Below are positions 5,167-31,197 of a DNA stretch of 31,197 bases, one piece after another. Below the pieces are notes generated by a model. It did no database searches. It was not told the origin of the DNA and saw only the letters and a program-made list of their open reading frames with translations. The translations under genes and the position numbers were made by a program. Each line of letters starts with the position of its first letter. The stretch's first letter is position 1. This stretch comes from a virus: the IMG/VR virus record IMGVR_UViG_3300048609_000070; one strand, given 5' to 3'.

Positions 5167-5180
5167 GCGTGATCTCCTTT

Positions 5181-5774
5181 TTACTTTTTGTAGTATTCCT
5201 GCTCCAATGCCAATGCTTTTACCTGTTTTCCAAGTGTCGTCATTACAAGTTGCAGATCTTTTTTCTTGGATTCAACGATACGATAAAACGATTGTGCCTC
5301 CTCCGCTGCAAGTTTAACTTCGCTTAGCTTACGGTATTCCCTGAGAAGCCGCTTTCTTACTTCTGCTTGTTGTATCCTGAGGTTCCTTAATTCGGAAATT
5401 TCATCTCTTGTCCAGAGCTTTGCTTCCTTGTTCTCAATATACTCCTCCAAGGCAGTCTGGATGCGTTTCCATCGCGAAGCGTTATCTGTAGCAAGCATTC
5501 CAATGGCAGTTGCCCGAGAGTAATAGCTTTGCGCCTTTGCATAGGTTTCAGTAATATCGGACGATGACTTTATGTCTGGATTACGCGGAATCTCGACCGT
5601 ATAATCTTGCATCTCTTTGATGTAGTCAGCATAGTCGAGTGCTACATGTTTGGCCAGAAATAACTCTTGTTTGAAAATGTTTATTCTCTCTTTATTTCCT
5701 ATTTCCAGCACGTCATTGGAAAGGATATGGTTAAGCTTATCCTCTGGTTTTGTTTTTATCTTCTTGACTTTCAC
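5181..5774 (-). CDS. Hypothetical coiled-coil protein.
   Basis: 197-aa ORF in the minus-strand operon context. Heptad-like, charged sequence. No recognisable motif. Confidence 0.5.
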   Translation of the reverse strand: MKVKKIKTKPEDKLNHILSNDVLEIGNKERINIFKQELFLAKHVALDYADYIKEMQDYTVEIPRNPDIKSSSDITETYAKAQSYYSRATAIGMLATDNASRWKRIQTALEEYIENKEAKLWTRDEISELRNLRIQQAEVRKRLLREYRKLSEVKLAAEEAQSFYRIVESKKKDLQLVMTTLGKQVKALALEQEYYKK

Positions 5775-6079
5775 GTGAATTCCTTCAACCGCCCTTCAGT
5801 TTTTAGAATTTTTTTCTCTAGTTTTTCAGCACGCTTGACAGAGCGAACGGCACTCTTGACACTTCGTCCGTGTTCACTCTTTTCAATCGCGGTCAAAATG
5901 TTTTTTTCTAGCCCGGAGATAACCTCTTGCATCAATTCGCCACTTCTTTCCTTGAGGAATTTAGGATCGATATTGTCAGGATAGGAACGTTCACGTTGCT
6001 CTCCAAAGCTGACACTAAAGATCGTTCCGTCTGGAAACTTCTTGCAAAAGGTACAATCCATGGTCTTTTTAATTTTCAC
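5771..6079 (-). CDS. Hypothetical small basic protein.
   Basis: 102-aa ORF with start/stop overlaps to both neighbours. CTFCKK pair near the N-terminus, Lys-rich C-terminus. Confidence 0.45.
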   Translation of the reverse strand: MKIKKTMDCTFCKKFPDGTIFSVSFGEQRERSYPDNIDPKFLKERSGELMQEVISGLEKNILTAIEKSEHGRSVKSAVRSVKRAEKLEKKILKTEGRLKEFT

Positions 6080-16421: not shown

Positions 16422-17932
16422 CGGGAACCCTCCAGGTTGAAGAAGTGTTTTTTTATTCGCATTTGTTTTATTACTGCACCCGTGATACTTTGATATATTT
16501 TTAACCTTGATCTACTCTGCCTCCGAAGGCATGGCCCATGATCGATGAAGTCCACTATAACACCATACTTCTTCCCTGCAGATGCCGTCAAAGATCGCAT
16601 TTTTTGAACCGTTGGAACCTGGCTCTTGAGTCCTTCCGCATTAATAACAATATCTAAACTAGGTAAATTCAGTCCTTCTTTACCTACTGTCCCAATGATG
16701 CAGTGTAACTTTTTTTCTTGCAACGCGGAATACACTTCCCGTCTTTGCTCAGTCGGAATTACTCCTTGTAGAAATATGCTATCAGGAATAAGATCTCTGA
16801 GGACTTCCCCGTGTGCTACCCTGTTGACAGTCACGAATACTGTCTTATTTTTCTTTTTAGCTTTGCTTACAAGCGTAGTAATAAAACGGTTCCTTGGAAT
16901 GTTCCCGACAATATTTGCTTCGTATTCATCCATGTAAGAAGACATAAAATTGGCGTACCATTCCACAGGAAGATCGAAAATATAGATAAAGGGTTTGGCA
17001 AGGCGTTTTTCTTTTACCAGAACATCATAGTTAACTTTGTTTACAATAGGTCCAATGGCAGCTTCTTCATTTAGTAAGCTCTCTTTTCTCGGTGTTCCGG
17101 AAAGACCTATTTTCAGGTACACGTTTCTAAATTCTCGCATCCATTGTCTAGAAATAGTTGCGTAGGAATGGTGGCACTCATCCAGAATAAGCATCTCCGT
17201 CCGTTGGATGCATTCTTTAATTTTGTAATTTCTTTCTAGGATAGCTCCAGATGATTTATATGTACCACGATTTCTTTTTGGAGCTCCAAAGACCGCGGCA
17301 AGTGCTTCATAACTGCTTACGATGACTTCTTCTGGTTCGTACCTTGATTCGGAGAACAGTCCAATTTTACGTCCACAGTGACTGGCAAGAGCTTGTTGTG
17401 TCTGAGCAACAAGATCTCTTTTAGAGGTAATGACCCAGATCGGTTGATGGTGATCAAGCTTATTTATTATTGCGCCAATAATGGCAGTCTTTCCTGACCG
17501 AACAGGCGCTTGGATAATTCCGTACCGATACTTGAGCGCCTTTTCTACAGCTTCTTTCTGAAAGGGAAGCAGCTTAAGATCACAGGCATGCACTTCGACA
17601 TCGTTGTACTTTGGAACTCTATCGAACTTCATTTCCACGTCGTATCCAAACGATTTCAAGATCTGCTCAATTCGGTAACAGCATCCTGTTGGCGCAACCT
17701 GCGTTTTGCTCATGAGACGGACTCGACCGTCCCATCCAAATTTCCTGTGTTGGGGTGTAAACTCAAACCCAGGCATCAAAAAAGACAGTTTGTACTGTAG
17801 CTCTTTAAGATGCTCCAAGGGAAGTCTTGGAGACACCTCGCACTGCACCGGCTCGATGTAGACGATAGCACGCATGATCGATACAATACTACAAGGCTGT
17901 TTCTGTTTCTTTCGGTTTGGACATCTCTGCAA
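16403..17932 (-). CDS. Superfamily-2 DExH helicase (ResIII/XPB-like) with an N-terminal accessory domain.
   Basis: LLPFQKEAV (Q-motif-like), APVRSGKTAI (motif I), LILDECHH (motif II), LSGTP (motif III), QKMRSLTASAGK (motif VI-like). Confidence 0.8.
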   Translation of the reverse strand: MQRCPNRKKQKQPCSIVSIMRAIVYIEPVQCEVSPRLPLEHLKELQYKLSFLMPGFEFTPQHRKFGWDGRVRLMSKTQVAPTGCCYRIEQILKSFGYDVEMKFDRVPKYNDVEVHACDLKLLPFQKEAVEKALKYRYGIIQAPVRSGKTAIIGAIINKLDHHQPIWVITSKRDLVAQTQQALASHCGRKIGLFSESRYEPEEVIVSSYEALAAVFGAPKRNRGTYKSSGAILERNYKIKECIQRTEMLILDECHHSYATISRQWMREFRNVYLKIGLSGTPRKESLLNEEAAIGPIVNKVNYDVLVKEKRLAKPFIYIFDLPVEWYANFMSSYMDEYEANIVGNIPRNRFITTLVSKAKKKNKTVFVTVNRVAHGEVLRDLIPDSIFLQGVIPTEQRREVYSALQEKKLHCIIGTVGKEGLNLPSLDIVINAEGLKSQVPTVQKMRSLTASAGKKYGVIVDFIDHGPCLRRQSRSRLKIYQSITGAVIKQMRIKKHFFNLEGSRWLKRE

Positions 17933-18722
17933 CTTTCCTTCGCAAAACCTTGAGGTTATGACGACGGAGGGAATCCAGGCCCAAGTTTAGTTCTTTGAAC
18001 GTGGTACGATGGTGGTGAAAAACAAAGGTCTCTAAACTTAACATTAGTTTATACCCGTGGAAGCGCAGCCGGTGACAATACTCGTCATCGTCACCCAGTC
18101 CAATAGACATTTCCTCACAGAGAAGACCAACTTTATTAATTGTGTCCCTGCGGAAAGCACAGCAAAAGAATGAGAGAGGGAAAATACCGACGTCAAGGTA
18201 GCGCCCAGGAAAAGCAGCTTCAAGCTTTTTTACATAATGATCTACATTTTTTTCATAAATTGGAACCTTGAGTTTTGGCCAATGAACATTGAGGTTTCTT
18301 CCTTCTTGCCAAGAGATCCGACTCTGCGTGACCGGGCCAACGGCACCGACTTTAGGATCCGCAATGAGGGGCTTGATGAGTTTACTTTCCCACTTGTAAG
18401 TAACCTCGGTATCGTTGTTTAGTAAAATAATGTAGTCGCCTTCTGCTTCCTTGATCCCTTGGTTGGTTGCCTGGATAAAACCCAGGTTCCTGGAGTTCCG
18501 GATAAGTTTACAGTGAACTCTTGGCTTGTGAATCTGGTGTTTAATGGCGCTGACATTATCCGGGGTGGATCCGTTGTCTACCCAGATGATCTCGTGTGGG
18601 ATCTTAGTTCCCGATCGAATGGATTGGAGACACCGGATCGTCATGCCCGATTGGTTGATGACAGGAATGACGATGGAAATCATTGGCTTGAAACCATCTT
18701 TATACATGTTTCGGATTCCCAT
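17889..18722 (-). CDS. Family-2 (GT-A fold) glycosyltransferase.
   Basis: ISIVIPVINQ...WVDNGSTPD...LLNNDTEV (DxD-type) motifs. Confidence 0.75.
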   Translation of the reverse strand: MGIRNMYKDGFKPMISIVIPVINQSGMTIRCLQSIRSGTKIPHEIIWVDNGSTPDNVSAIKHQIHKPRVHCKLIRNSRNLGFIQATNQGIKEAEGDYIILLNNDTEVTYKWESKLIKPLIADPKVGAVGPVTQSRISWQEGRNLNVHWPKLKVPIYEKNVDHYVKKLEAAFPGRYLDVGIFPLSFFCCAFRRDTINKVGLLCEEMSIGLGDDDEYCHRLRFHGYKLMLSLETFVFHHHRTTFKELNLGLDSLRRHNLKVLRRKVAEMSKPKETETAL

Positions 18723-19437
18723 GTCTTCTTAGTTCCTGGTCCTTGAACATTCTCTGCTTTCTTGAGTCCACATTGCCCTTATGCTGTATCAGGTCCGTTG
18801 CATGAAAATAACCAATCCAGTAACCATGACGAGCAGCTGCTTTGCTGATCATGTAGTCTACTCCATATTTTACTCCGTGTGGGTGTCCCCCAACTTTCAA
18901 AAAGACATCTTTTTTGCAGAGTCGGCATGCACCATTGACTAGCCACCTGTCCGGGTGATAGCTCACATAGACGGTCTCGCTGCTTCGAAGAGGATAGGTC
19001 TTGCCTCTTTCCCCCGAGTAGAGCTTCTTTCCTGACCGAAGCGCAAAGGAGCTGGTCCTCCAGGGCATGTCCCAGCTCAGGAAAGCCAGCTTCTGCTCGT
19101 TGACTTCTTCGTATGCTTCAACAATCCTCTTTGCAAAATCCGGTGGAGGAAGTATGTCGTCATCGATCTTGATAAGGTACTTCCCTCTTGCTTTCCGTGC
19201 CAGGAAGTTTATAGCCTCGACACCATAGTTTACTTCAGAACTATGGATAAAAGACACGTTGGAGTTTAGGTTTTTGTAGTCACAGAGCCAATCGAAGGTT
19301 CCATCTTCTGAAGCATTGTCCCAAACTAAGATTTCATGCTTTATTTTGCCAGTGAGAATTCCAATGGCAGGAACGTATTCCGAGGAGATCTTTATTCGGT
19401 TGTGCGTAAGGATAAGCAGAGAAACGAGAGGTGCCAC
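18700..19437 (-). CDS. Family-2 (GT-A fold) glycosyltransferase.
   Basis: VSLLILTHNR...LVWDNASEDGT...KIDDDILPPP motifs. Confidence 0.7.
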   Translation of the reverse strand: MAPLVSLLILTHNRIKISSEYVPAIGILTGKIKHEILVWDNASEDGTFDWLCDYKNLNSNVSFIHSSEVNYGVEAINFLARKARGKYLIKIDDDILPPPDFAKRIVEAYEEVNEQKLAFLSWDMPWRTSSFALRSGKKLYSGERGKTYPLRSSETVYVSYHPDRWLVNGACRLCKKDVFLKVGGHPHGVKYGVDYMISKAAARHGYWIGYFHATDLIQHKGNVDSRKQRMFKDQELRRHGNPKHV

Positions 19438-19438
19438 A

Positions 19439-19996
19439 CTATTTGATCCCTTCCAAATTCAGGCTAATCAAAGTGCCATTTTCTTTATCCAGATGCGGAA
19501 GGTACGATTGAGAGTAGTCGTCAAAACCAGAGAGCTCTCCAGAGAAAACCTCTCTCCAGTTCCAAGGACGTACTGTAGAAAATTCTGCTTTATAAAGAAC
19601 CTCGCTTAGTTTTTCTTTATCGTAGATTGCTTTGTGATTGACGATAGTAGCTTTATCTATAGCCCAACGTCCATAAATCGGTCCTGATACGAGGCTGACC
19701 ATTTTATACTGCAAGTATACTTTTGCAAGCGCTTCAAAATCAGGAACGGCAAGTCGAAGAATGCCTTTTGGCTGTAATTTAGAGTGCCACTCGTGAAGAA
19801 CGAATTTGACCTCCTCATCGTCGAAATACTCAAGGACGTGAGAAGCGTAAATGATCTCAACCGATCCATTTTCGATCATGGGAAGCTGTCTCAGATCATG
19901 GACGAAATCTATGTGAGGGTAGTGACTAAGATCGATATGTTTATATCCTGGAAGGTATCGTTTTCCGCAACCGAGATGAAGTTTGATGTTTTCCAT
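19439..19996 (-). CDS. Class I SAM-dependent methyltransferase.
   Basis: Motif I LHLGCGKRYLPGY. Acidic post-I HIDL. VEIIYASHVLEYF motif. Confidence 0.6.
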   Translation of the reverse strand: MENIKLHLGCGKRYLPGYKHIDLSHYPHIDFVHDLRQLPMIENGSVEIIYASHVLEYFDDEEVKFVLHEWHSKLQPKGILRLAVPDFEALAKVYLQYKMVSLVSGPIYGRWAIDKATIVNHKAIYDKEKLSEVLYKAEFSTVRPWNWREVFSGELSGFDDYSQSYLPHLDKENGTLISLNLEGIK

Positions 19997-19998
19997 TT

Positions 19999-21072
19999 TT
20001 AGCTTTCAAAGAATTCGTTTATTTTTGTACAAACAAACAGGATTTGTTCTTCTGTGAGATCTAAGGAAGAGGGAAGCCACAAGCCTCTTGGTGCTATATT
20101 TTCTGCAACAGGGAGACAAGTTTTCGAGTCAAAGTATACAGGTTGTTTATGAATAGGCGGATAGAATGAACGGCTACTAATCTCAAAACCTTTTAGATGA
20201 TTGATAAGCTTGTCCCGTAACATTTCTGTTGGACATAGGATATCGACGAACCAAGGAACTTCTTCTTTATTCATTGGAGCAATCGTTACTTTTTTAGTAA
20301 GGTTCTTTGCATATGTTTCAAAGATCTGTCTTTTCTTTGCTTTTCTCCATTCAATACTTTTGAGTTGGGTTCGTCCAAGCACTGCTTGCAAATCTGTAAA
20401 CTTGAAATTGTAGCCCATAGACGTATGCCAGTCAACACCTGGAGCGGATCTTCCAAAATCTTTGATTTGGCGGATCCGTTCGTAGATTACTTTATTATTA
20501 GTAACGACCAGACCCCCTTGACCCGTTGTAATAATCTTGTGAGGAGTTAACGAATAAACGCCTACCAGTCCAAAGGTTCCAAGATATTGGCCATCCACGC
20601 AAGACCCAAATGCCTGGCATGCGTCTTCGATCAAGATAAGATCTTTGGCTTTGCAATACTGAACAATAGACTTTATGTCCCCGCTCCTTCCATTGAGAGG
20701 GACATAGAGTACCGCCTTACAGTATTTTGGCGGGTAGCAGCTAAGAACATCCATCGTGAAGTCATCTGACCGAATGTCCACGAGCGTTGGGAGAGCATAG
20801 GCCCACCGTACAGCATTTGCCGTGGCTATCATCGTGAGTCCAGGAACGAGGACGATATCTCCAGGTTGGATTCCACAGGCCAGAAGGGCCACATACAGGC
20901 CCACGGTGCCGCTCGTGACTGCCACGCAATAGCGCACCCCAAGATAGTTGGCAACGTCTTCCTCGAAGGCTGCTGTTTCTTTATGTTCTGTAAGCCATTT
21001 ATTGCAGCGCAGGTAGTCCGTGATGGCTGAAACTTCATCTTCTCCGTAGACAGGGTGGATTTGATCGATCAC
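19999..21072 (-). CDS. DegT/DnrJ/EryC1/StrS-family PLP-dependent sugar aminotransferase.
   Basis: DACQAFGS and SLTPHKIITTGQGG (PLP-binding Lys). The fold-type I pattern runs the full length. GTG start in a GTGA overlap with the upstream cupin stop. Confidence 0.85.
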   Translation of the reverse strand: MIDQIHPVYGEDEVSAITDYLRCNKWLTEHKETAAFEEDVANYLGVRYCVAVTSGTVGLYVALLACGIQPGDIVLVPGLTMIATANAVRWAYALPTLVDIRSDDFTMDVLSCYPPKYCKAVLYVPLNGRSGDIKSIVQYCKAKDLILIEDACQAFGSCVDGQYLGTFGLVGVYSLTPHKIITTGQGGLVVTNNKVIYERIRQIKDFGRSAPGVDWHTSMGYNFKFTDLQAVLGRTQLKSIEWRKAKKRQIFETYAKNLTKKVTIAPMNKEEVPWFVDILCPTEMLRDKLINHLKGFEISSRSFYPPIHKQPVYFDSKTCLPVAENIAPRGLWLPSSLDLTEEQILFVCTKINEFFES

Positions 21073-21099
21073 AGTAATTCTCTTTCTTCGTCATCATTA
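21066..21099 (-). repeat. 34-nt direct repeat, copy A (cgatcacagtaattctctttcttcgtcatcatta), at the 3' end of cupin paralog 1.
   Basis: 33/34 identical to copy B. The surrounding gene sequence is only ~60% identical. Confidence 0.7.
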
Positions 21100-21476
21100 T
21101 CTACTTCATAAGGTCCGGGTTTCACCTCTAGTAATTTAGTTTCATTAGCACGCACGGTATAGCCTACTCCACCATTGTATAGTATGTAGAACTCTCCAGC
21201 TTGTAAATTTCGTGTGTCTACCAGGGTCTTACCTTTCTCTGAAAATGTACGAACTTCTACTGATCCTTTGAGTACAATAAGTATCTCTTCCGTCTTGTTT
21301 ATTTGACGTTTACGTTCTATGTGTCTATGATCTCGCAGGATCTTTCCAGAATTATACCAGAATGCTCCAACTTGAATAGCATTTTTTTTCGATCCATAAA
21401 AGGTTAGTCCCGGCTCAAAATTATTTATATCATCTACGATAGCAAGCAATGTCCCTTTGTGTTTAATTTCTTGCAT
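21069..21476 (-). CDS. Cupin-fold sugar-nucleotide ketoisomerase-like protein (FdtA/QdtA/WxcM C-terminal-domain family), paralog 1.
   Basis: 135 aa. HRHIERKRQ...ILIVLKGSVEV cupin His motif. About 50% identical to the C-terminal domain of the next gene, with an identical ...NDDEERELL C-terminus. Confidence 0.65.
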   Translation of the reverse strand: MQEIKHKGTLLAIVDDINNFEPGLTFYGSKKNAIQVGAFWYNSGKILRDHRHIERKRQINKTEEILIVLKGSVEVRTFSEKGKTLVDTRNLQAGEFYILYNGGVGYTVRANETKLLEVKPGPYEVDNDDEERELL

Positions 21477-21575
21477 TTGTTTCTTCCTCCATGACGCTCG
21501 CTACCATTTCATCTACGATCTGTGGCAATTTGATCTGAGGTTCCTTCTTATTCCCATTAAGAAGAACATACCCGA
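21477..21575 (-). pseudogene. Degenerate relic of a GDP-mannose dehydratase 3' end, sitting between the fusion gene and cupin paralog 1.
   Basis: On the minus strand it translates open as ...NGNKKEPQIKLPQIVDEMVASVMEEETNARN*. Compare the intact GMD C-terminus GWEPKTKIQDLIDEMVRSVMLEEQNS*. Its stop overlaps the following cupin start, exactly as in the intact GMD/next-gene junction. Confidence 0.5.
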
Positions 21576-21596
21576 TCACAGTAATTCTCTCTCTTC
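21563..21596 (-). repeat. 34-nt direct repeat, copy B, at the 3' end of the cupin domain of the fusion gene.
   Basis: cgatcacagtaattctctctcttcgtcatcatta. One mismatch to copy A. Confidence 0.7.
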
Positions 21597-22538
21597 GTCA
21601 TCATTATTTACAATGAATGGTCCATTCTTTATTTCTAGCATGCGTGTATCATCTTCTAATACGGTAAATCCTACTCCTCCATTATACGATACATAGAAGC
21701 TTCCAGCTTTTAGTATTCTGGTATCTATCAGATCTTTCCCAGTTGGTGCAAATGTCCGTGCTTCGCAGGATCCTTGCATTACAATTAATATCTCTTGAGT
21801 TTTTTTCGCGATTCGTTGCCGTTCAATATGTCGATGGTTTCTGAGAACTTTTCCTTTACCATAACAAAATTGTCCTACTTGGATGTTATCCTCGCGTTTT
21901 CCGTAAAATGATAATCCAGGTGCAAAGTTTTTTATATCATCTATGATTGCCAGTAACACGTCTTCGTGAACGATTTCGATTATTGGGCTAGACACATCTT
22001 TCTCTTTCGGTTTAACTAAAAATACATCCTGTTTTCTAGTTCCATCTTTGTTAAAAGGATCATTAATAATTCCCCTGATTTCAATCTTTTTGTTATATTT
22101 TTTACAAATGGTTATTAAGTTCTTCTGCATGACATCGTAAGTTGCTATAATTTTATTATAGTTAGGATCGGTAATATGGAAATATGTAAAATAAAAGCTA
22201 TCAAAGTTTTGTAGCACATCATTAATAAATTTGACTGGGTTGTCCAGATACTCTAGCAAACCTAGCGCTATGGCAATTCTTTGGGACTGTTCTCCTTTAA
22301 ACTCAGATGGGAATTTAGTATTTAAATCGTAGAATATCACAGTATCGTTCTGTTTAACCATGTCAATCCCAAAGTATTGTTGACCGCTAAGACATTTCTG
22401 TATTTCGCAAAAGCCACAACCAAAGTCATAAACGTATTTATATGAAAGTCTATTTATTAACTTTGCAAAGAATTCAGCTCTATACTTCCATATTTCTGCA
22501 TGTGACATTATTTTTCCTTTACGAATTTTGCTCCTCAA
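21576..22538 (-). CDS. Fusion protein: N-terminal class I SAM methyltransferase plus C-terminal FdtA-like cupin ketoisomerase domain (paralog 2).
   Basis: N-terminal VYDFGCGFC (motif I), GIDM, IAIALGLLEYL. The C-terminal ~135 aa align to the upstream cupin including the HRHIERQR motif and the NDDEERELL end. The start may be the second Met (11-nt overlap with gmd). Confidence 0.65.
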   Translation of the reverse strand: MRSKIRKGKIMSHAEIWKYRAEFFAKLINRLSYKYVYDFGCGFCEIQKCLSGQQYFGIDMVKQNDTVIFYDLNTKFPSEFKGEQSQRIAIALGLLEYLDNPVKFINDVLQNFDSFYFTYFHITDPNYNKIIATYDVMQKNLITICKKYNKKIEIRGIINDPFNKDGTRKQDVFLVKPKEKDVSSPIIEIVHEDVLLAIIDDIKNFAPGLSFYGKREDNIQVGQFCYGKGKVLRNHRHIERQRIAKKTQEILIVMQGSCEARTFAPTGKDLIDTRILKAGSFYVSYNGGVGFTVLEDDTRMLEIKNGPFIVNNDDEERELL

Positions 22539-23490
22539 GCATTACTGAACGCACCATTTCATCTATGAGATCTTGAATCTTAGTTTTTGGTTCCCAGCCT
22601 AGAACTCTTTTTATTTTTTCTGGGTTACCTAGCAATTCAGGAACTTCTTTTGGACGTTTATAACGGTCTTCTATCCTTACATATTTTTTCCAATCTAAGC
22701 CAAGATACGCAAAAACTTTTTCTAAGAACTCTTTTACAGAGTAGCATTCCCCTGTTGCAACAACAAAATCATCTGGAACCGAGTGCATTATTATTTTGTA
22801 TACAGCTTCCATATATTCCTTGCTTGAACCCCAATCTCTTTTTGCTTCTAAATTACCTAATGTAATATCTTTTTGTTTTCCTAGTTTTATCCGTACTGCA
22901 GCCCTGACTATTTTCTTCTCTACAAATGTCTCCCCACGTCTTGGTCCGCAATGATTGAAAAGGATTCCATTCGATGCAAACAATCCATAGCCATCTCTAT
23001 ATGTACGAACCATCCAGTACGCCGCGAGTTTTGCAATACCGTAGGGGCTACATGGAACAAATTGAGTATTTTCGTTTTGTGGCGGTGGTGACATTCCAAA
23101 TTGTTCACTCGAAGATGCATGATAAATTCTTACCTTGTTTTTCCATCCTAAATTTCTAATAGCTTCAAGAATACGAGTTGGACCAACTGCATTGGTATCC
23201 ATTGTATAGATAGGAACATCAAAGGATACCCGCACATGACTCATTGACGCCATATTAAAAATTATATCTGGATTTATATCATGTAGGACCGTTTCAATAT
23301 TTCCTGTAAGATCTCCATAAACAAGTTTTATTTTTTCAGTAGGAAGAAGCAGATGATCAATTCTTGTGGTATTTATAGAACTAGATCTTCGGACGATTCC
23401 GTATACCTCATAGCCTTTTTCTAGTAGCAGCTCAGCTAAGTAGCTTCCATCTTGGCCATTAATACCCGTAACGAGCGCACGATTAGTCAT
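22519..23490 (-). CDS. gmd: GDP-mannose 4,6-dehydratase.
   Basis: ALVTGINGQDGSYLAELLLEKGYEVYGIVRRSS N-terminus. SSSEQFG, YGIAKLAAYW (YxxxK), and ILFNHCGPRRGETFVEKKI (the GMD NHESPRRGETFVTRKI box). Confidence 0.9.
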   Translation of the reverse strand: MTNRALVTGINGQDGSYLAELLLEKGYEVYGIVRRSSSINTTRIDHLLLPTEKIKLVYGDLTGNIETVLHDINPDIIFNMASMSHVRVSFDVPIYTMDTNAVGPTRILEAIRNLGWKNKVRIYHASSSEQFGMSPPPQNENTQFVPCSPYGIAKLAAYWMVRTYRDGYGLFASNGILFNHCGPRRGETFVEKKIVRAAVRIKLGKQKDITLGNLEAKRDWGSSKEYMEAVYKIIMHSVPDDFVVATGECYSVKEFLEKVFAYLGLDWKKYVRIEDRYKRPKEVPELLGNPEKIKRVLGWEPKTKIQDLIDEMVRSVMLEEQNS

Positions 23491-23493
23491 TCT

Positions 23494-24246
23494 TTACCTC
23501 GATCCCCAGTTTTGTTCAAGATTTGCAACAAGAACAAATTTCTTTGCCATATCCTGAAACATATATTCATTCCTTAACCGGTATTCCTTATTGAAGTACG
23601 CTTTATCCCTTGAATGCGGAAGGTGAACCATCGAAGTTACATTATTTATTCGTACTTCTTGGTATCCACAATATTGTGCCCGGATAAATAGATTCTTGTC
23701 TTCAAATCCCCAGCCAATATATCTTTCGTCGTGGCCATGCACATCTATAAGCCAATTTCTATCTAAGGCATTACAACACCCTTCTCCATGCGGAGGTTTC
23801 TTAGCTTTTTTTGCAAGATCCAACAATACTTTGTATGTCTCATTCGTATATGTTTTTGGTTCTACACCTGATGGAAGCCCGTACAAGAAATATGTATAGC
23901 ACATTACGAATGATTTATGAGTAACGACTTTTTTATAAACTTCTAAAAAGAAATTAGGAGCAAAAATTTGATCTGCATCTGTCATACAAATGTATGTTGT
24001 TCTTGCTTCTTTTATGCCAATATTTAACGCACGTGTTTTATGAAAAATAGCTGTATTTCTGTCTACCCGCACAACTTTGACCCATGGGTATTCTTTTACA
24101 ACAACTGGAGTGCTACTTCCAAAATCCACAATGAGTAATTTTGGACGAGGAACGCATAAAGAAATAGATTTTATGCAAAATTCAAGATTTAATCTCCGAT
24201 CTTTGCATGCAATAACTGCAGTCAAATCTAGATCATTTAAATCCAT
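23494..24246 (-). CDS. GT-A-fold glycosyltransferase (GT2/GT7-like).
   Basis: ICMTDADQIF DxD motif. C-terminal IGWGFEDKNLFIR resembles the WGxEDxD box of galactosyltransferase-like GT-A enzymes. Confidence 0.65.
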   Translation of the reverse strand: MDLNDLDLTAVIACKDRRLNLEFCIKSISLCVPRPKLLIVDFGSSTPVVVKEYPWVKVVRVDRNTAIFHKTRALNIGIKEARTTYICMTDADQIFAPNFFLEVYKKVVTHKSFVMCYTYFLYGLPSGVEPKTYTNETYKVLLDLAKKAKKPPHGEGCCNALDRNWLIDVHGHDERYIGWGFEDKNLFIRAQYCGYQEVRINNVTSMVHLPHSRDKAYFNKEYRLRNEYMFQDMAKKFVLVANLEQNWGSR

Positions 24247-25246
24247 TTTCTGAAAGGACGTTCAGTAATTGTCTAGCACGGTTTTGGTAAGTATGACTTT
24301 TAAGAGTTTTTACTCTGCCATTAACCCCAATCCGTAATCTTTCTTCTGGTCTTGCCATGTAATATTTTGCTTTTTTTACAAAGTCATTACAATCATCAAA
24401 AAAAACTACATCCTTCTCATTCTCAAATACTTTCTCAAGCCCTGGATTTTTGTCCAGCATGAGAAATCCTGCAACACCCATTATAATAGGAACTCGGTCA
24501 TTCAGATACATATCTGCTTTTATAACATGATTAGACATATTTATTCTTGAACGGCAATAATGTTCATGAACAGTTGTCCATAATGTTTCTCCTTTATAAT
24601 ACTGCGATAGTAAAGAACTTCCAGAAATAAAAGGTTTTCCATTCCTTGCAATTGTTTTGTCCGCTACCCAAAGATGATTACCATATAGCTCTATGTTTTT
24701 TATTCCTTCTCTGATAAGACCGAATACGGCGTCTTTTCTTGCCATTTTTGTACACACATAGGGTGTTCCAACAAATACGAAGTCCACTTTATCTTCTTCT
24801 TTGACGTATGTATATTGTCTCGCCGAGCTGTCAAAAGCAGGCCAAAATAAGTATGGTTTGAGACCGACTTTCGTATAAGATGGGAATGACTCTTTCGCAC
24901 ATGTTAGCGCAATTCTGAATCCGGCATACAAATGATTACTCATGAATGCTGGTACAAAAAATGGATCATCTTGTGACCAATAAACAGACATTCCAACATT
25001 TTTATTTATCCATTTTGCTATTTCAAGGTCTATTTTGAATTTAGGTTTTAATGCTTTTGTAGCGAAATAAACATCTGGTTTTGTTCTAATTATTTCTTTC
25101 TTAAGGACTTCACTGTACTTTTTTCCTCCGTCTTTACAATCCAAATAATGTAACCATACAGCATTATGATCAAGAACTTCATGACCCATTGTCTTTAGTG
25201 TACTTACCATTTCTGGGTAAGATCCACCATTAAAGAAAAATTTCAC
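24233..25246 (-). CDS. CgeB-like (Glyco_trans_1_2 family) glycosyltransferase.
   Basis: C-terminal ...VFFDDCNDFVKKAKYYMARPEERLRIGVNGRVKTLKSHTYQNRARQLL matches the CgeB-family signature (...HTYxxR...). Soluble, no transmembrane segment. Confidence 0.6.
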   Translation of the reverse strand: MKFFFNGGSYPEMVSTLKTMGHEVLDHNAVWLHYLDCKDGGKKYSEVLKKEIIRTKPDVYFATKALKPKFKIDLEIAKWINKNVGMSVYWSQDDPFFVPAFMSNHLYAGFRIALTCAKESFPSYTKVGLKPYLFWPAFDSSARQYTYVKEEDKVDFVFVGTPYVCTKMARKDAVFGLIREGIKNIELYGNHLWVADKTIARNGKPFISGSSLLSQYYKGETLWTTVHEHYCRSRINMSNHVIKADMYLNDRVPIIMGVAGFLMLDKNPGLEKVFENEKDVVFFDDCNDFVKKAKYYMARPEERLRIGVNGRVKTLKSHTYQNRARQLLNVLSENGFK

Positions 25247-25248
25247 TA

Positions 25249-26154
25249 TTATCTCCTAACTATGCTATTAAATAGCCTATAAAAAAAATTGAAAATGAAT
25301 TTTGGATCTGTATATTGCGTACATCTATTACTTAGATACCATGGCTGCCGTAACATATTGCAGTATGCTTTATCATCTCTATCTAAGGACACAACTTTTT
25401 CTATTAAATAATCATACATGTAATCATCGCTTTTAAAGTCCTTTCCAACAACGTTTACAAAGCTATTCATGTTAAAATCTTTATATACTTGTGGATTACC
25501 CCAGTATATTGGAATACTATTTGCTTGCATAGGATTGTAAATTTTTTCAGACGTGTACCCTACGGCAAATCTGTTCTCAAAAGAAATAGTAAATTTGAAC
25601 TGCTTTAAGTACTCAACTTTATCTATGTAAAAATTAGCACTAAGTCTAGAATCCATTGCGGTTTTGTGACCGCCAATTGGATCTGTATTTGTGCAGCATG
25701 GACCAGGCGAATGAACAAATTTGTACTTACTTAGTTTGTCAAAAAATATATTTCGATGTGGAACGCTGTGCCAATAGATAAATGCACAAAATTTTGTCTT
25801 TTGACTAAGAATTTTTTCTGGACTGTACGTTGGATCTTTTATTAAATCTGTACCTGCACCATTGAAAGTATAATTTGGAAAACGCAAGTAATTAGGTGAT
25901 TTTATTGTATCTGGATACTGCCAACCTAACGCCCACTCACAAGTAGACATTTTTGTTTGCATGTACTCACGTGCATAGGATATCCTAATACATTTTTCTC
26001 TTGGTGAATCTGTTTTTGAAAAGAAGATAACAAAATCAGGATTTTTTGACACGACAAATTTGAAGTTTGCTAGGACTTCTGGCATGTTCCTAAAAAAGTA
26101 TGCAGGGTCATCTACTTTACCACCAGCTCTAATTTGTATTTTTATTTCTTTCAA
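25249..26154 (-). CDS. GT10-family alpha-1,3-fucosyltransferase-like glycosyltransferase.
   Basis: KFTISFENRFAVGYTSEKIYNPMQANSIPIYWG matches the GT10 alpha-1,3-FucT motif (FxL/VxFENSxxxxYxTEK). Confidence 0.7.
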   Translation of the reverse strand: MKEIKIQIRAGGKVDDPAYFFRNMPEVLANFKFVVSKNPDFVIFFSKTDSPREKCIRISYAREYMQTKMSTCEWALGWQYPDTIKSPNYLRFPNYTFNGAGTDLIKDPTYSPEKILSQKTKFCAFIYWHSVPHRNIFFDKLSKYKFVHSPGPCCTNTDPIGGHKTAMDSRLSANFYIDKVEYLKQFKFTISFENRFAVGYTSEKIYNPMQANSIPIYWGNPQVYKDFNMNSFVNVVGKDFKSDDYMYDYLIEKVVSLDRDDKAYCNMLRQPWYLSNRCTQYTDPKFIFNFFYRLFNSIVRR

Positions 26155-26761
26155 TTTTTTCTCCTAGTATACAGTGTAACGCATACAAGTAAGCTTCATC
26201 TTTATGCAAAAATGCATAATCATAAGATTCTATTGTATTTATTCTTTTGTATAATGGCATTAGCATAAGTAAATGCTCATAAATTGACATAATTGGAAAA
26301 AAGTTAGATGTTGAGTTTATTTCATTTAAAAAAGTACCTATTGTTTTCTCACTTGGCATTCTACATGGGTGAGCTACACCATACTTTTCTTTGAATTTAT
26401 CTAACTGAAAAGCAGGCTCACCAAAAGGAAATACATGCACGATCATTCTTCTTGAAACTCTATAGGATTCCAGCAGGAATACGTGATGGTCTTCTACGTG
26501 TTCAAGCGTATCAATCGAGATAGCCGCATCAAAATTGTCATTTCTATAAGGTAATTTCAGACAGTTTATTGCTACAGAATTCGCATGGATATCACTATTA
26601 GCGTTTACTACGGTGCAATCCAAAAAATTATTAATTCTTCCTGTACCTCCCATGTCAATTACTGACATAGGTTTTATTTTTGTTAGTAGATCTGCAACGG
26701 AGTAGTGTACTACTGCTGCCACAACTGGAATATCTAGGATATTATTTTTGACACCTGTCAT
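26129..26761 (-). CDS. Class I SAM-dependent methyltransferase.
   Basis: SVIDMGGTGRI (motif I). NDNFDAAISIDTLEHV (motif II/III). Confidence 0.65.
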   Translation of the reverse strand: MTGVKNNILDIPVVAAVVHYSVADLLTKIKPMSVIDMGGTGRINNFLDCTVVNANSDIHANSVAINCLKLPYRNDNFDAAISIDTLEHVEDHHVFLLESYRVSRRMIVHVFPFGEPAFQLDKFKEKYGVAHPCRMPSEKTIGTFLNEINSTSNFFPIMSIYEHLLMLMPLYKRINTIESYDYAFLHKDEAYLYALHCILGEKIERNKNTN

Positions 26762-27684
26762 ATCATTTCCAAGAATTCTAAAAGTGTAGCTACTCTATTA
26801 GAAATATTGTGCATCTTACGTGTAATATCATACATGTTTTTTCCTATTTTTTCTCTAAGGAGATTATCTTTTAATAGATGGTCAATCTTAACCAACAAAT
26901 CTGATAGATCGTTATAGAAAATAATGTCTGAATTTACTCCTAAGATATCCCGTGCTTCTTTTCTATCTTTAGTTATAACAGGTGTTCCACATGCCATACA
27001 CTCGAACATTCTATGCGCGAGCGGTGAATTTTCTTGCTGTAAATCTAGACTAATTTTCGCACTGTTTATTTCTTTGATAAATTCTTGTCCTTCTAATTGA
27101 CCATATGATCGAATATTTTTCCAATTTGTTCCAAATATTTTTATCTTATAAGAAGGAAATTTTTTCAAGATATGATTCATCGTATTAATACGGTACGTTG
27201 CAGGAGTGAATCTGCTATGGAACCCTTGTCCGTATACTATTATATCAGTTGTTTTTTCCAAATTTATTTTTCTATGAAACGAAGTATCGCATGCTGTTGG
27301 AAAATAAAAAGTTTTGATTTTTTCTCGTGTATGTAAAAATGTGTTGTAGCAATTTGTGACGTAAATATTGTAATTAAGTAATTTATTCTCGTCCCATTCG
27401 TATGGATCTGAGAACCCAAAACCGAGAACACGCGATCCTAAATTATTAATATCGTGCAGCGTACAACCTGAGTATTGAGACCATGTATGCGCGATCCATA
27501 CGTCAGTAAACTTTTCCTTTTTTATGGTATTAAGAAGTTCAGATCCATCAATTATGTTTTTTTCTAAACTGTGGACATTTTTCCATTTAATAGAAAAATT
27601 ACGAGATTGCATTTCTTTAAAAATTGAACATTTAGTTCCGCAAACATTCTCTGCGTATGAGTCTGACAAATATAATATTTTCAT
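26758..27684 (-). CDS. GT4 (glycosyl transferases group 1, GT-B) glycosyltransferase.
   Basis: C-terminal E-x7-E-like region with ECMACGTPVITKD. Typical GT-B length. Confidence 0.75.
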   Translation of the reverse strand: MKILYLSDSYAENVCGTKCSIFKEMQSRNFSIKWKNVHSLEKNIIDGSELLNTIKKEKFTDVWIAHTWSQYSGCTLHDINNLGSRVLGFGFSDPYEWDENKLLNYNIYVTNCYNTFLHTREKIKTFYFPTACDTSFHRKINLEKTTDIIVYGQGFHSRFTPATYRINTMNHILKKFPSYKIKIFGTNWKNIRSYGQLEGQEFIKEINSAKISLDLQQENSPLAHRMFECMACGTPVITKDRKEARDILGVNSDIIFYNDLSDLLVKIDHLLKDNLLREKIGKNMYDITRKMHNISNRVATLLEFLEMI

Positions 27685-28178
27685 TCTCTGTACCTTATAA
27701 ACTTTGCTGGATTACCTCCAACAATAGCATTGTCTGGTACGTCATTGTTAACAACGGATCCAGCTCCTACTACAGCGCCAGATCCGATGACAACTGGACC
27801 AACAATAATCGCACCAGCTCCAATCCATGATCCATTTTTTATTTCTATTCTTCCTGGTATGTTATCCTGTTCAGCAATAGACTTTCCCTTTTTTATACCA
27901 TGATTTTGCGCGTATATTCCAACATTCGGAGAAATTAGTACAGTTTCTCCAATTACTACGTTACCAAGAGCATGTATAATTGTGTTCACTCCGAGAACAG
28001 AATCATTGCCTATTACTATTGTTCCGCTACAGGTACGAAGTATCACTCCAGGTCGAATTCGTACTCTATTCCCGATAATGATACGGCCTGAACCATTCTC
28101 CTCGAAGCCAAGATAAGCAGAGTTATCTATGGAGCATTTATCTCCTATTTTAATTTCTTTTAGCGTTTTGCTTATCAT
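27681..28178 (-). CDS. Left-handed beta-helix (hexapeptide-repeat) acyl/acetyltransferase, candidate amino-sugar N-acetyltransferase (FdtC/QdtC/PerB-like).
   Basis: Repeated [LIV]-G-x-x-x-x-I hexapeptides (IGNRVRIRPGVIL...IGAGAIIVGPVVIGSGAVVGAGSVV). Confidence 0.8.
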   Translation of the reverse strand: MISKTLKEIKIGDKCSIDNSAYLGFEENGSGRIIIGNRVRIRPGVILRTCSGTIVIGNDSVLGVNTIIHALGNVVIGETVLISPNVGIYAQNHGIKKGKSIAEQDNIPGRIEIKNGSWIGAGAIIVGPVVIGSGAVVGAGSVVNNDVPDNAIVGGNPAKFIRYRE

Positions 28179-28954
28179 TTTTTTCTAAATAAGTAATTGT
28201 TTATTTTGTAAAAGTTTTTAGATACAAGTGCATTACCATTTCTTTGCCAGCTGTGAACAGACTGCGAAAAATGCCCTGAAGTTGGTTTTACCATACTGCT
28301 TACCTCTAGCGACAACAAACCATCCGTAACCAAAGAATCACTTATACTATTGAACGATGCGATAGGATCCGCAATATGCTCTAGCACGTCTAGGCAGATA
28401 ACTGCATTGTACATATTTTTACATAAAATACTGTCTGGGTAAAAAAACGAATTTATTTTTATTTTTCTATTTGTTACCCGCCATTTTGCATAATTATACA
28501 ATGGACCATCCACGTCTAAAAGGTCTACAATAGCTCCCTTTTGGGAACAGTATATTCCATGACTACCTACGCCACAACCGTAATCTAAGATACGTTTATC
28601 CTTAAACCCACCAATATTCTTTTCCAAGTCTTTAATATAGCTGCTCCTTCTTTCAACTGTTAGCGTAGAAAGAGTCCTAAGATAATCGACGGTTTCGAGG
28701 TACACATATTTTTTGTATATGAACTCGTAAGATGATGCTTGAATGTCCTTGTCTTCATATAAACGAATAGATGCTGGAGATGCAATTGCAAGACTTTTTA
28801 TTTTAGAAATTTTCAATCCGGAATACAAGGATAGCTCGTAGTCTATCTCATCCTGTGTTTCTTGAAAAATATTGTTAGCCACGGTTGCTCTTCCCGCTAG
28901 ATAGAACAAACTCACGCATTTTCTTTTTGTTTCTTTCAAAAACTTCGTCATCAA
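28175..28954 (-). CDS. Class I SAM-dependent methyltransferase.
   Basis: KRILDYGCGVGSHGIY (motif I), DLLDVD, AVICLDVLEHIADP. The annotated start overlaps the radical-SAM gene by 80 nt, so the true start is uncertain (no internal ATG; possibly a non-ATG start). Confidence 0.7.
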   Translation of the reverse strand: MMTKFLKETKRKCVSLFYLAGRATVANNIFQETQDEIDYELSLYSGLKISKIKSLAIASPASIRLYEDKDIQASSYEFIYKKYVYLETVDYLRTLSTLTVERRSSYIKDLEKNIGGFKDKRILDYGCGVGSHGIYCSQKGAIVDLLDVDGPLYNYAKWRVTNRKIKINSFFYPDSILCKNMYNAVICLDVLEHIADPIASFNSISDSLVTDGLLSLEVSSMVKPTSGHFSQSVHSWQRNGNALVSKNFYKINNYLFRKK

Positions 28955-30212
28955 GATTCGTTAGCTTTATGAAAGAATCCCAATGATTCAACCCTGTGGG
29001 TCCCCACATATAGAAATTGTAATGATCAATATCTGTATCCGTAATACGGCAGGAAAAATTTGATGGGTGTTTTGATATTGCAGATCCAGGAATGGGAATA
29101 AAATTGGTAAGCGCAATTGTATCATAAGATTCTGGAATACTTTGCAAAAATTCAATGTTTCGGTCCGCAGTATCTTCCGTTTCACCTGGGGTTCCAATCA
29201 TAAATAATATACGTACAACCATTCCAGATTTCTTTGCATTTACAATTCCGTTATAATTATCCTGAACGCTATTTCCTTTTCTTAATATTTTTAGGACATT
29301 GGGGTCCGCGCTCTCAACACCAAAACTTACTTCTCTGCAACCAGACTCGTACATCTCTTTAAACATATACGTACTATTTGGGCGAGTTCTTATAGACGCA
29401 CGCCAAATGATGTCATATTTTTTTATTTCTTTGCATAAGCTACTCAAGCGTTTTGTATCCAAAGTAAGAGTATCGTCACTGAATCTAATTTGTCTTATCC
29501 TGTATTTACTTACAATTTCATCTATTTCTGCTATAACGTTCGATACACTTCTCATATAAACTTTACGGTTCCAGATACCAGGAGATGCACAAAATGAACA
29601 ATTATATGGACATCCTCGGCTTGTTATAATTACGCTACTTCCTCCACTTTTGTAGACTTTATTAAATGCAAAAATATTTCCACCTTTGTCGTTGATCATA
29701 TCTCTTGCTGGAAATGGAAGATTATCTAAGTCGGTTATACGCTGTGATTTATAATATTTACGTAAATTTGGATAATCGTTGATAACATCAAATATAATAC
29801 GTTCTCCTTCACCGGATATTATTGAATCTATTTCTTTATCTTGAATCAATTCTGGTGTTAGAGAAATCGGACCACCTAATATTACTTTACAATTATTATT
29901 AGAACTTTTTATTCTTTTAGCTACTTCAATACATGGGTTTCTATCAAGAACTGTACCCGTTATCCCATAAATATCCGCCAAAGGAAATTCAAATGGGTCT
30001 TCCCAGTATTTTGAGCTAAGATCGAGCAGCGTAACATCCATATTCTTTTCACGTAGAGATGCTGCAATGTACATTAACCCTAATGGAGCTTGCGCTGTGG
30101 GTTGCTTAAGATAAGCATGCGGTGGGTTAATCAAACAAATTTTCATTGCTGGTTTTTGAACCAATCTATAAAATTTTTTATACCAACTTTGAAATCTATT
30201 TTTGGAAACCAA
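28875..30212 (-). CDS. B12-binding-domain radical SAM enzyme (class-B radical SAM, candidate C-methyltransferase).
   Basis: N-terminal MKICLINPP...LGLMYIAASL Rossmann-like B12 domain. CPYNCSFCAS (CxxxCxxC) radical-SAM cluster motif. The real start is probably Met23 at 30146, which forms an ATGA overlap with the upstream epimerase stop. Confidence 0.8.
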   Translation of the reverse strand: MVSKNRFQSWYKKFYRLVQKPAMKICLINPPHAYLKQPTAQAPLGLMYIAASLREKNMDVTLLDLSSKYWEDPFEFPLADIYGITGTVLDRNPCIEVAKRIKSSNNNCKVILGGPISLTPELIQDKEIDSIISGEGERIIFDVINDYPNLRKYYKSQRITDLDNLPFPARDMINDKGGNIFAFNKVYKSGGSSVIITSRGCPYNCSFCASPGIWNRKVYMRSVSNVIAEIDEIVSKYRIRQIRFSDDTLTLDTKRLSSLCKEIKKYDIIWRASIRTRPNSTYMFKEMYESGCREVSFGVESADPNVLKILRKGNSVQDNYNGIVNAKKSGMVVRILFMIGTPGETEDTADRNIEFLQSIPESYDTIALTNFIPIPGSAISKHPSNFSCRITDTDIDHYNFYMWGPTGLNHWDSFIKLTNLDDEVFERNKKKMREFVLSSGKSNRG

Positions 30213-31087
30213 CCCAATAATTTTTTGGCTTTGCTAATTCCAGCATGCGTATGCACCATATCAGATAAAGGCATTTCTTCATTAATAATACTATAATTTT
30301 CTATGTCTAAATTGTAAGCAATTTCTTTTATTACATCTGCCAGAAATACTGGATTGCCGCTACCAAGATTTATAACATTAAATCCATTTGCTTTATCTCT
30401 TGCTAATATAATTCCATCAATGATGTCGCTTACATATGTATAATCTCGCGTAGTAAATCCATTTCCATAAACTGTAAGGGAATTTTTAGAAATTAATTCT
30501 TTTGAAAATCTGTGAATGGCAAGATCTGGTCGTTGTCTAGGTCCATAACAAGTAAATATACGAAGACAGGTAATATCTATCTTATAATTATTTGAGTACG
30601 CCCTGCACAAATCTTCTCCACAAGCCTTCGTTGCTCCATACACTGAAATAGGCTGTAGAAATAATTCTTCGTTGAATATCTTAGAATTGGTAGTTCCATA
30701 GACACTTGAAGAGGATGCAACGATAAGTTTTGTTTTTGAACTGGACAATTTAAGAATTGCATTCAGTGCTGAAATGTTGTTTTGTATAAACATACTTGAA
30801 TCTACAAAGGATTGACGAACTCCTGGAGACGCTGCTAAGTGGACAATGCTGTCTACATTTTCTAGCGTAGAAGAAAAATCTTTCGTAGGGATTTGTAATA
30901 TATCCTTAGTTATAAGATGGAAATTTTTATTTTTTAGCGCTCTCTGTAAATTTTTTCTTTTTATTTCTGGATCGTAAAAGTCATTGAAATTGTCAATTCC
31001 AATAACCTGTTCATTAATATCTAATAGATGATCCACAAGTGAAGATCCAATAAAACCAGCGCATCCTGTAACTAATGTAGTTTTCAT
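30143..31087 (-). CDS. NAD-dependent sugar-nucleotide epimerase (extended SDR, GalE/WbpP-like rather than a 4,6-dehydratase).
   Basis: VTGCAGFIGSSLVDHLL Rossmann motif. ASSSSVYG lacks the dehydratase DE pair. YGATKACGEDLCRAY (YxxxK). Confidence 0.8.
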   Translation of the reverse strand: MKTTLVTGCAGFIGSSLVDHLLDINEQVIGIDNFNDFYDPEIKRKNLQRALKNKNFHLITKDILQIPTKDFSSTLENVDSIVHLAASPGVRQSFVDSSMFIQNNISALNAILKLSSSKTKLIVASSSSVYGTTNSKIFNEELFLQPISVYGATKACGEDLCRAYSNNYKIDITCLRIFTCYGPRQRPDLAIHRFSKELISKNSLTVYGNGFTTRDYTYVSDIIDGIILARDKANGFNVINLGSGNPVFLADVIKEIAYNLDIENYSIINEEMPLSDMVHTHAGISKAKKLLGWFPKIDFKVGIKNFIDWFKNQQ

Positions 31088-31197
31088 TTATTTAGTAGAG
31101 CAAACGCGAGATTATGTACTTCCACGTGTTTTTTTTCATAATAGGCTATTTTTTCTTGCATTCTTTCTATAATTATATTTCTGTATTCTTCCAATAA

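Follow-up and report, generated by a model that had tools for sequence, protein, structure and literature searches.

What does a radical S-adenosylmethionine (SAM) enzyme with a vitamin B12-binding domain do among the sugar genes of a phage? The question is raised by IMG/VR record IMGVR_UViG_3300048609_000070, a 31,197-nucleotide stretch of viral DNA (hereafter the window) whose source is very probably a large uncultured tailed phage. An earlier reading of its letters alone, here called the original prediction, had reported a B12-binding radical SAM protein with a CPYNCSFC motif inside a sugar cluster, and this was borne out, the Pfam Radical_SAM and B12-binding profiles both scoring above their cut-offs. 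It had given positions 28175-30212 as the interval; the radical SAM gene does lie there, but the interval spans two genes, the lower of which encodes a class I methyltransferase. Profiles and structure models give the radical SAM protein a cobalamin-dependent (class-B) architecture, and gene neighborhoods place it in a conserved, mobile cassette of glycan genes, where we tentatively assign it to the C-methylation of a glycan sugar. The gene and its two functional regions are:

28875..30146, minus strand: B12-binding-domain radical SAM enzyme, 423 aa (Pfam Radical_SAM 1.8e-23, together with B12-binding PF02310)
29727..30146, minus strand: N-terminal Rossmann domain, residues 1-140, of the cobalamin-binding type by profile, fold and invariant loops
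29589..29612, minus strand: CPYNCSFC, the CxxxCxxC [4Fe-4S]/SAM motif (C179, C183 and C186 of the 423-aa protein)

The radical SAM protein

The maximal open reading frame (ORF) occupies 28875-30212 and would encode 445 aa from a TTG codon at 30212. An ATG at 30146 overlaps the stop codon of the upstream short-chain dehydrogenase/reductase (SDR) gene as ATGA, and the homologues all begin with MK[IV]CL[IV]NPP, which matches this ATG; the true start is therefore almost certainly ATG 30146, giving a protein of 423 aa. Its three motif cysteines were invariant in 61 homologues, and the radical SAM core (PF04055, E=1.8e-23) was modelled as a barrel with a predicted local distance difference test score (pLDDT) above 90. 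The full-length AlphaFold2 model (pLDDT 95, predicted template modelling score 0.91) consisted of a five-stranded Rossmann domain, a partial TIM barrel and a small C-terminal domain, so that, as far as profiles and models can tell, the architecture is that of a class-B enzyme.

In a clustered database, 1940 homologues of about 423-441 aa were detectable, and an exhaustive profile search returned 18,349 representatives at E<=1e-30, a set that amounts to class B in the broad sense. The identical protein is recorded on a JGI contig of 136.5 kb, in keeping with a large phage as the source; Logan yielded a single 1.5-kb contig for the protein and none for the SDR. Among 50,697 phage records there was no close homologue, the best match having 25% identity over 44% of the query; no PHROG family matched the protein, and we found no characterised member of this subfamily in the literature.

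Evidence for a cobalamin-type N-terminal domain

Whether the N-terminal domain is a cobalamin-binding Rossmann fold was the point on which the original prediction had staked its case, a generic radical SAM maturase being the other outcome. Such a fold was recovered by profile, by predicted structure and by a domain-only search of the PDB. PF02310 scored 40.6 bits against a gathering cut-off of 32.1, and residues 1-140 modelled on their own again formed a five-stranded Rossmann domain (pLDDT 94). The loops that are invariant in the family, QAPLG23, Y60-G-I-T-G-T65-x-L67-D, G91-G92-P93 and G112-E-G-E115, are located at the C-terminal edge of the sheet, and the TxL, GGP and GEGE motifs are all retained. 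The spacing G23...T65-x-L67...G91-G92 fits the classical cobalamin motif of MetH, G-(41)-SxL-(26-28)-GG. The His ligand of the classical cobalamin motif is absent, as is expected of base-off/His-off class-B enzymes (PMC13331322). Profile alignments matched GGP and GEGE to TokK, CysS, MgmA and TsrM, and L67 to the Trp position of TokK and CysS, where the Trp sits beneath the cobalt (PMC13331322); the window enzyme thus resembles these two in having a hydrophobic residue at this position and no His ligand.

When the whole set of PDB sequences was searched at E<=10 with a profile of the first 140 residues, eleven matches emerged, headed by CysS (1.2e-4), TokK (2.8e-4) and 4Q37, the TM0182 cobalamin domain (0.027). 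These were followed by the cobalamin-binding AerR (0.16), a non-corrinoid cysteine desulfurase (0.17) and MgmA (0.41), the remaining weak matches being other non-corrinoid proteins. AprD4, a radical SAM enzyme to which we return below, was not returned even at this threshold. A domain-only Foldseek search was likewise led by CysS, TokK and OxsB (TM 0.57-0.72), with AerR also among the best and generic flavodoxin-like folds further present in the list. Finally, the NCBIfam models of cobalamin enzymes align through the domain (PhpK 46-364, BchE 25-355, HpnR 36-382, QCMT 45-380). Since the Pfam match, the models, the invariant loops, the PDB profile search and the structure searches agree, we conclude from sequence and modelling that the domain is a Rossmann fold of the cobalamin-binding type, and the enzyme is predicted to bind cobalamin.

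On the Pfam, Foldseek, structure and N-terminal profile results we rejected a generic radical SAM maturase without a B12 domain. A MiaB/RimO methylthiotransferase was rejected as well: the fold is related, but the protein has neither the N-terminal Cys triad (UPF0004) nor a TRAM domain.

A conserved cassette around the radical SAM gene

In the window the radical SAM gene is contiguous (26129-30146) with two methyltransferase genes, a PF13524 glycosyltransferase gene and an acetyltransferase gene:

28175..28882, minus strand: class I SAM methyltransferase (Methyltransf_23), 235 aa; Pfam E=2.9e-10
27681..28178, minus strand: hexapeptide-repeat sugar acetyltransferase, optional member; Pfam Hexapep 9.2e-14, also WcaF- and NeuD/PglB/VioB-like below cut-offs
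26758..27684, minus strand: glycosyltransferase-like protein, PF13524 Glyco_trans_1_2; Pfam 4.1e-24
26129..26761, minus strand: second class I methyltransferase, Methyltransf_11; Pfam 1.1e-6, 29.6 bits, with a weak MftM-like sugar O-methyltransferase signal (NCBIfam 3.3e-4)

The maximal ORF of the Methyltransf_23 gene reaches 28954, and alignment with eight orthologs sets its start at GTG 28882. From there the gene shares 8 nt with the end of the radical SAM gene, and the two are translationally coupled. We had considered a frameshifted radical SAM-methyltransferase fusion, but the 80-nt overlap of the maximal ORFs vanishes with this start, which leaves two separate genes.

The comparison drew on 79 loci of GTDB genomes and on 80 from IMG/VR; in the latter, relatives of the radical SAM protein are encoded on at least 354 viral stretches. 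Scores against a family hidden Markov model separated close orthologs (at least 556 bits) from a distant tail (at most 420 bits), yielding a close group of 16 distinct loci, the window counted, and a distant comparison set of 138. The close group includes, on the phage side, contigs of 43-224 kb (L087-L091) and the phage-like loci L003, L004 and L006, along with metagenome-assembled genomes (MAGs) of Deltaproteobacteria, Pirellulaceae, Phycisphaerae, Saccharibacteria, Bathyarchaeia and Thermoplasmata. An ortholog of the Methyltransf_23 gene was adjacent to the radical SAM gene, or at most three genes from it, in nine of the 16 close loci and in none of the 138 distant ones. Orthologs of the PF13524 glycosyltransferase (at least 111 bits) were found in nine close loci and those of the Methyltransf_11 protein in eight, both being essentially absent from the distant set, while acetyltransferase orthologs were present in six close loci, with weak matches only in 4/138 distant loci. 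An independent search placed close homologues of the Methyltransf_23 protein on contigs whose lengths equal those of contigs carrying the radical SAM homologues. Judged by these neighborhoods, the Methyltransf_23 methyltransferase is a dedicated partner of the radical SAM enzyme, and the cassette is conserved and horizontally mobile across large phages, bacteria and archaea.

The remaining sugar genes do not travel with it. The SDR, the GDP-mannose 4,6-dehydratase (GMD), the aminotransferase, the cupins and the GT10 enzyme were shared with L003 alone, a syntenic phage in which the radical SAM protein has 71% identity to that of the window; an SDR ortholog beside the radical SAM gene was thus seen in one of the 15 other close loci and was lacking in the other 14. 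The dehydratase and aminotransferase with which the original prediction had linked the enzyme therefore accompany it in L003 only, whereas the acetyltransferase stands as an optional partner. All four contexts inspected by tables of called genes were glycan clusters, and bacterial orthologs lie in classical polysaccharide loci with carbamoyl-, sulfo- and pyruvyltransferases. Two fusions were also found: in L013 the cassette glycosyltransferase (GT1_2) is joined to the acetyltransferase and two GT2 domains, and in L159, a distant IMG/VR relative, a single 1224-aa ORF (3532-7206) combines GT1, GT2, GT2 and B12-radical SAM domains. Since the conserved partners are a glycosyltransferase and methyltransferases, and in view of the fusions, the cassette is indicated to be a module that tailors at the level of the glycan rather than one that acts on a GDP-sugar.

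Several other variants of the radical SAM protein came to light. The ortholog in a Saccharibacteria MAG (L010:5968-8292) has 774 aa and carries a LAGLIDADG_3 intein-like insertion after approximately residue 354. A similar picture is given by several database representatives, 700-763 aa long, whose matches are split. The representative library also contains proteins of 2000-2300 aa with four to six tandem radical SAM profile matches, and P0146, P0152, P0159 and P0183 were noted alongside the multi-domain viral ORF of L159. In many distant loci (L017, L057, L061, L070, L128, L129 and L151) two to four paralogous B12-binding radical SAM genes stand side by side, which echoes the 15 radical SAM genes of a huge virus in the literature (PMC9723712).

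The surrounding glycan cluster

The cassette belongs to a run of 16 contiguous glycan genes that fill 17.9-31.1 kb of the window, about 13 kb (Pfam and NCBIfam). The sugar cluster of the original prediction is confirmed by a GMD (Pfam 391 bits), a DegT aminotransferase, the acetyltransferase, six glycosyltransferases (three GT2, two PF13524-like and one GT10 fucosyltransferase-like) and the SDR; two WbuC-like cupins, three class I methyltransferases and the radical SAM gene complete it. Outside the cassette the features are:

30143..31087, minus strand: NAD-dependent SDR epimerase/dehydratase, upstream neighbor of the radical SAM gene and translationally coupled to it; Pfam GDP_Man_Dehyd/Epimerase 1e-46
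17889..26154, minus strand: rest of the soluble glycan cluster by Pfam and NCBIfam, with two GT2 genes, a methyltransferase, the DegT aminotransferase, a WbuC-like cupin, a methyltransferase-like/cupin fusion, GMD, a GT2, a PF13524 glycosyltransferase and a GT10-like gene
19439-19996, minus strand: stand-alone methyltransferase, Methyltransf_11, 22.7 bits against a cut-off of 21.2
21069-21476, minus strand: WbuC-like cupin, 135 aa, paralog of the C-terminal half of the fusion
21576-22538, minus strand: methyltransferase-like/cupin fusion, C-terminal half WbuC-like (31.7 bits, cut-off 42)

Pfam agreed with the original prediction on the three stand-alone methyltransferases (19439-19996, 26129-26761 and 28175-28882). 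The methyltransferase fused to a cupin isomerase that it had further proposed fared less evenly. The cupin half stands, and the other half, with a Methyltransf_8 match at E=0.008 and a visible DFGCGFC motif I as its sole marks, is a plausible but weakly supported methyltransferase, and isomerase activity was not established. The cupin encoded at 21069-21476 shares 62% amino-acid and 66% nucleotide identity with the C-terminal half of the fusion, and the space between these two genes (21477-21575) is the cluster's sole sizeable intergenic gap.

Among the proteins of the cluster (17889-31087) there was no convincing membrane span, all being soluble, and no flippase (Wzx), polymerase (Wzy), ABC exporter or priming phosphoglycosyltransferase. 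This makes a cytoplasmic acceptor probable, and virion proteins, for example, would fit such an all-soluble set, although by comparison with the syntenic phage L003 the cluster probably runs past the window end at 31197, which would truncate it. In L003 (1-9993) the glycan genes extend about 9 kb further upstream of the SDR, where additional GT1 and GT2 genes are accompanied by Methyltransf_21 proteins, a pyruvyl transferase and an AdoMet decarboxylase-like gene.

Candidate reactions of the radical SAM enzyme

The role that we consider most likely, although with somewhat less than even confidence, is cobalamin-dependent C-methylation of a glycan sugar. In this scheme the [4Fe-4S] cluster on C179, C183 and C186 would cleave SAM reductively to a 5′-deoxyadenosyl radical, which would take a hydrogen from an unactivated carbon of the sugar residue added by the cassette glycosyltransferase. 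Methylcobalamin, held base-off/His-off in the N-terminal Rossmann domain, would then give up a methyl radical to form a C-methyl (or otherwise extended alkyl) sugar, and the two class I methyltransferases and the acetyltransferase could put O-/N-methyl and acetyl groups on the same residue. Methyl transfer, the sugar substrate and the acceptor, be it a virion protein or another cytoplasmic acceptor, are all predicted from sequence. The original prediction of a methyl-rich sugar product is reasonable to the extent that two methyltransferases are conserved partners of the enzyme, but its C-methyl part stays conjectural.

Consistent with this assignment, methylases make up the majority of the cobalamin radical SAM enzymes that have been characterised (PMC12931638, PMC13331322). 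The class-B methyltransferases CysS (9N1B), TokK (7KDX), TsrM (6WTE) and MgmA/QCMT (9CCB) have the same combination of Rossmann domain, CxxxCxxC barrel and C-terminal domain, but they are just 15-26% identical to the window enzyme, CysS and TokK are much longer (about 645-680 aa, compared to 423 aa), and their substrates are peptides, carrier-bound aromatics and carbapenams rather than glycans. Sugar C-methylases of this class include GenK, GenD1 and MoeK5. Set side by side by description, these three resemble the proposed activity in predicted chemistry alone, namely a methyl group placed on an unactivated sugar carbon beside class I N-/O-methyltransferases; their setting is the antibiotic clusters of actinomycetes rather than phages or loci for polysaccharides or glycans.

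Several observations weigh against the assignment. The original prediction had equated class B with C-methylases, which proved overstated: among the named methylase families tested (PhpK, Sden_1168, HpnR, QCMT/MJ0865, TsrM, KedN5 and RiPP C-methyltransferase), and among curated NCBIfam families altogether, none reached its cut-off, and the scores were far below (PhpK, the best, 122 against 600 bits; Sden_1168 105/575; QCMT 84/360; HpnR 74/650; TsrM 37/500). With such scores, no PHROG and no close homologue in cultured phages, specificity is not readable from homology, and no sequence signature sets methylases apart from the other cobalamin radical SAM chemistries (BchE, OxsB, HpnJ). The best whole-chain structural match was not a methylase but AprD4 (6FD2), whose overall three-domain fold is similar. 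An Rfam search of the window and seven related loci found no cobalamin riboswitch, and there was no cobalamin gene and no tRNA either. Moreover, one close ortholog (562 bits) lies on a 7.4-kb Thermoplasmata MAG contig (L011:766-3883), flanked by a TET-associated-glycosyltransferase-like gene (TAGT-like, 26.5 bits) and a 5-hydroxymethyldeoxyuridine (5-hmdU) DNA kinase helical-domain gene (HMUDK_hel, 143 bits), a context of the DNA-hypermodification type which implies that the substrate need not always be a classical glycan.

First among the alternatives, and unlikely in our estimate, is an enzyme that depends on cobalamin but does something other than simple C-methylation: it might rearrange the sugar by radical chemistry, contract its ring, cyclise it or form a C-C bond on it, comparable to the reactions of OxsB, BchE and HpnJ on their own substrates. 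It shares all of the evidence for the cobalamin domain; OxsB was a structural match, class-B enzymes with non-methylase chemistry are documented (PMC13331322), and HpnJ and BchE were among the best NCBIfam matches. The scores of these two were nonetheless far under the family cut-offs (113 against 578 and 84 against 481 bits), characterised members of the class are mostly methylases, and dedicated methyltransferase partners suit a methylation theme better.

Also unlikely, and ranked just behind, is a cobalamin-independent enzyme like AprD4, the radical SAM 1,2-diol dehydratase of apramycin biosynthesis, or some other redox or epimerising sugar enzyme. An AprD4-like enzyme would convert a sugar diol into a keto-deoxy sugar, which the coupled SDR would reduce in the manner of AprD3 to give a deoxysugar. 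AprD4 is similar in size (457 aa against 423 aa) and acts on an aminosugar, and the window supplies an adjacent NAD(P)-dependent partner in the SDR, whose ATGA coupling to the radical SAM gene is an arrangement kept in L003. AprD4 itself binds no cobalamin and yet contaminates similarity networks of B12-radical SAM enzymes (PMC12931638). The similarity is, however, confined to the radical SAM core (profile positions 128-362), the NCBIfam AprD4 model (NF033070) scoring 77.3 bits against 500 over residues 151-380 alone. The N-terminal profile, which detects CysS, TokK and TM0182, misses AprD4; the loop motifs of the cobalamin type do not vary within the family; and methyltransferases are what is conserved among its partners, the SDR being restricted to a single other close locus.

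A more elaborate version of C-methylation, which we regard as a long shot, would make the radical SAM enzyme and its methyltransferase partner a two-step alkylation module, with a hyper-alkylated glycan on virion proteins as its product in the phage. An O- (or N-) methyl group would first be set by the class I enzyme on the sugar added within the cassette; this group, or an unactivated carbon next to it, would in turn be methylated by the cobalamin radical SAM enzyme, leading to ethyl, isopropyl or C-branched sugars. CysS and CndI, which methylate aromatic methoxy groups, serve as the model.

Least probable is a substrate other than a surface or virion glycan, be it DNA bases, a peptide or a lipid. 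The L011 ortholog between its TAGT-like and HMUDK_hel neighbors, the window cluster's contact with the replication module and its want of membrane, export or priming proteins speak for it. Against it, the context of L011 occurs just once in 166 loci, the cluster's set of six glycosyltransferases, GDP-sugar pathway and GT10-like enzyme typifies oligosaccharide assembly, and bacterial orthologs reside in classical polysaccharide loci. A phosphonate P-methylase was rejected; PhpK and Sden_1168 were the best NCBIfam matches but at about 20% of their cut-offs, and none of the 16 cluster genes scanned was a PEP mutase or phosphonate gene.

Implications of the proposed C-methylation on a phage glycan

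Giant viruses and mycobacteriophages encode virion glycosylation machineries, which the window cluster resembles as a virus-encoded, autonomous and soluble set of nucleotide-sugar, glycosyltransferase and methyltransferase genes; we know of no viral glycan pathway with a characterised radical SAM step. B12-binding radical SAM genes have been mentioned in passing for viruses of anoxic habitats and large environmental viruses (PMC9723712). Cobalamin-dependent radical SAM enzymes number tens of thousands, a few dozen of which have been characterised, none of them known from polysaccharide or viral glycan assembly. What is new here is the delineation of a compact mobile cassette that holds an uncharacterised member of this known kind of enzyme. 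Because the cassette is common to large phages, Deltaproteobacteria, Planctomycetota, Saccharibacteria and Bathyarchaeia, it offers a tractable subject for heterologous expression and for the discovery of radical chemistry on glycan sugars.

If the phage copy is active, the structure of a virion or host-surface glycan would depend on host B12 and reducing conditions, and C-methyl or longer-alkyl sugars could resist glycosidases or antibodies. Should the alkylation module prove real, it would introduce radical, B12-dependent chemistry to viral glycan pathways for the first time, and the make-up of the phage particle would be linked to the cobalamin and anaerobic iron-sulfur metabolism of the host. 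An AprD4-like activity would instead provide a radical deoxygenation route in polysaccharide biosynthesis.

Genomic setting of the cluster

The minus strand carries every gene of the 31.2-kb window, and packing is tight. Its first 17.9 kb contain phage-type replication and recombination genes:

within 1-17.9 kb, minus strand: SbcC/SbcD-like nuclease (PHROG 77, 217 bits)
6069-8096, minus strand: UvsX-like recombinase, ORF of 675 aa (234 bits)
within 1-17.9 kb, minus strand: family A DNA polymerase (413 bits), about 30% identical to those of SPO1-like Bacillus phages
11043-13307, minus strand: sigma-like protein, 754 aa, with a weak N-terminal match to PHROG 1740 (E=1.9e-6)
within 1-17.9 kb, minus strand: DnaB-like and UvsW-like helicases of the phage replication module

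The glycan cluster adjoins these genes directly, its first GT2 gene being overlapped by that of the UvsW-like helicase. The GC content at third codon positions (GC3) was 0.38-0.51 for the replication genes and the first four glycan genes (17889-21072), compared to 0.22-0.33 for the genes of 21069-31087, which include the cassette. The low GC3 of this block relative to the backbone is consistent with its recent horizontal acquisition, cassette and all, and suggests that the glycan cluster is a mosaic. The compositional break between 1-21072 and 21069-31087 is sharp.

Two proteins of the replication region have unusual layouts. In the UvsX-like ORF the recombinase match starts at about residue 357-415, and the preceding 350 or so residues form an N-terminal extension without assignment. 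In the sigma-like protein, extremely acidic D/E repeats take up several hundred residues after the N-terminus and give way to a basic, K-rich C-terminal part.

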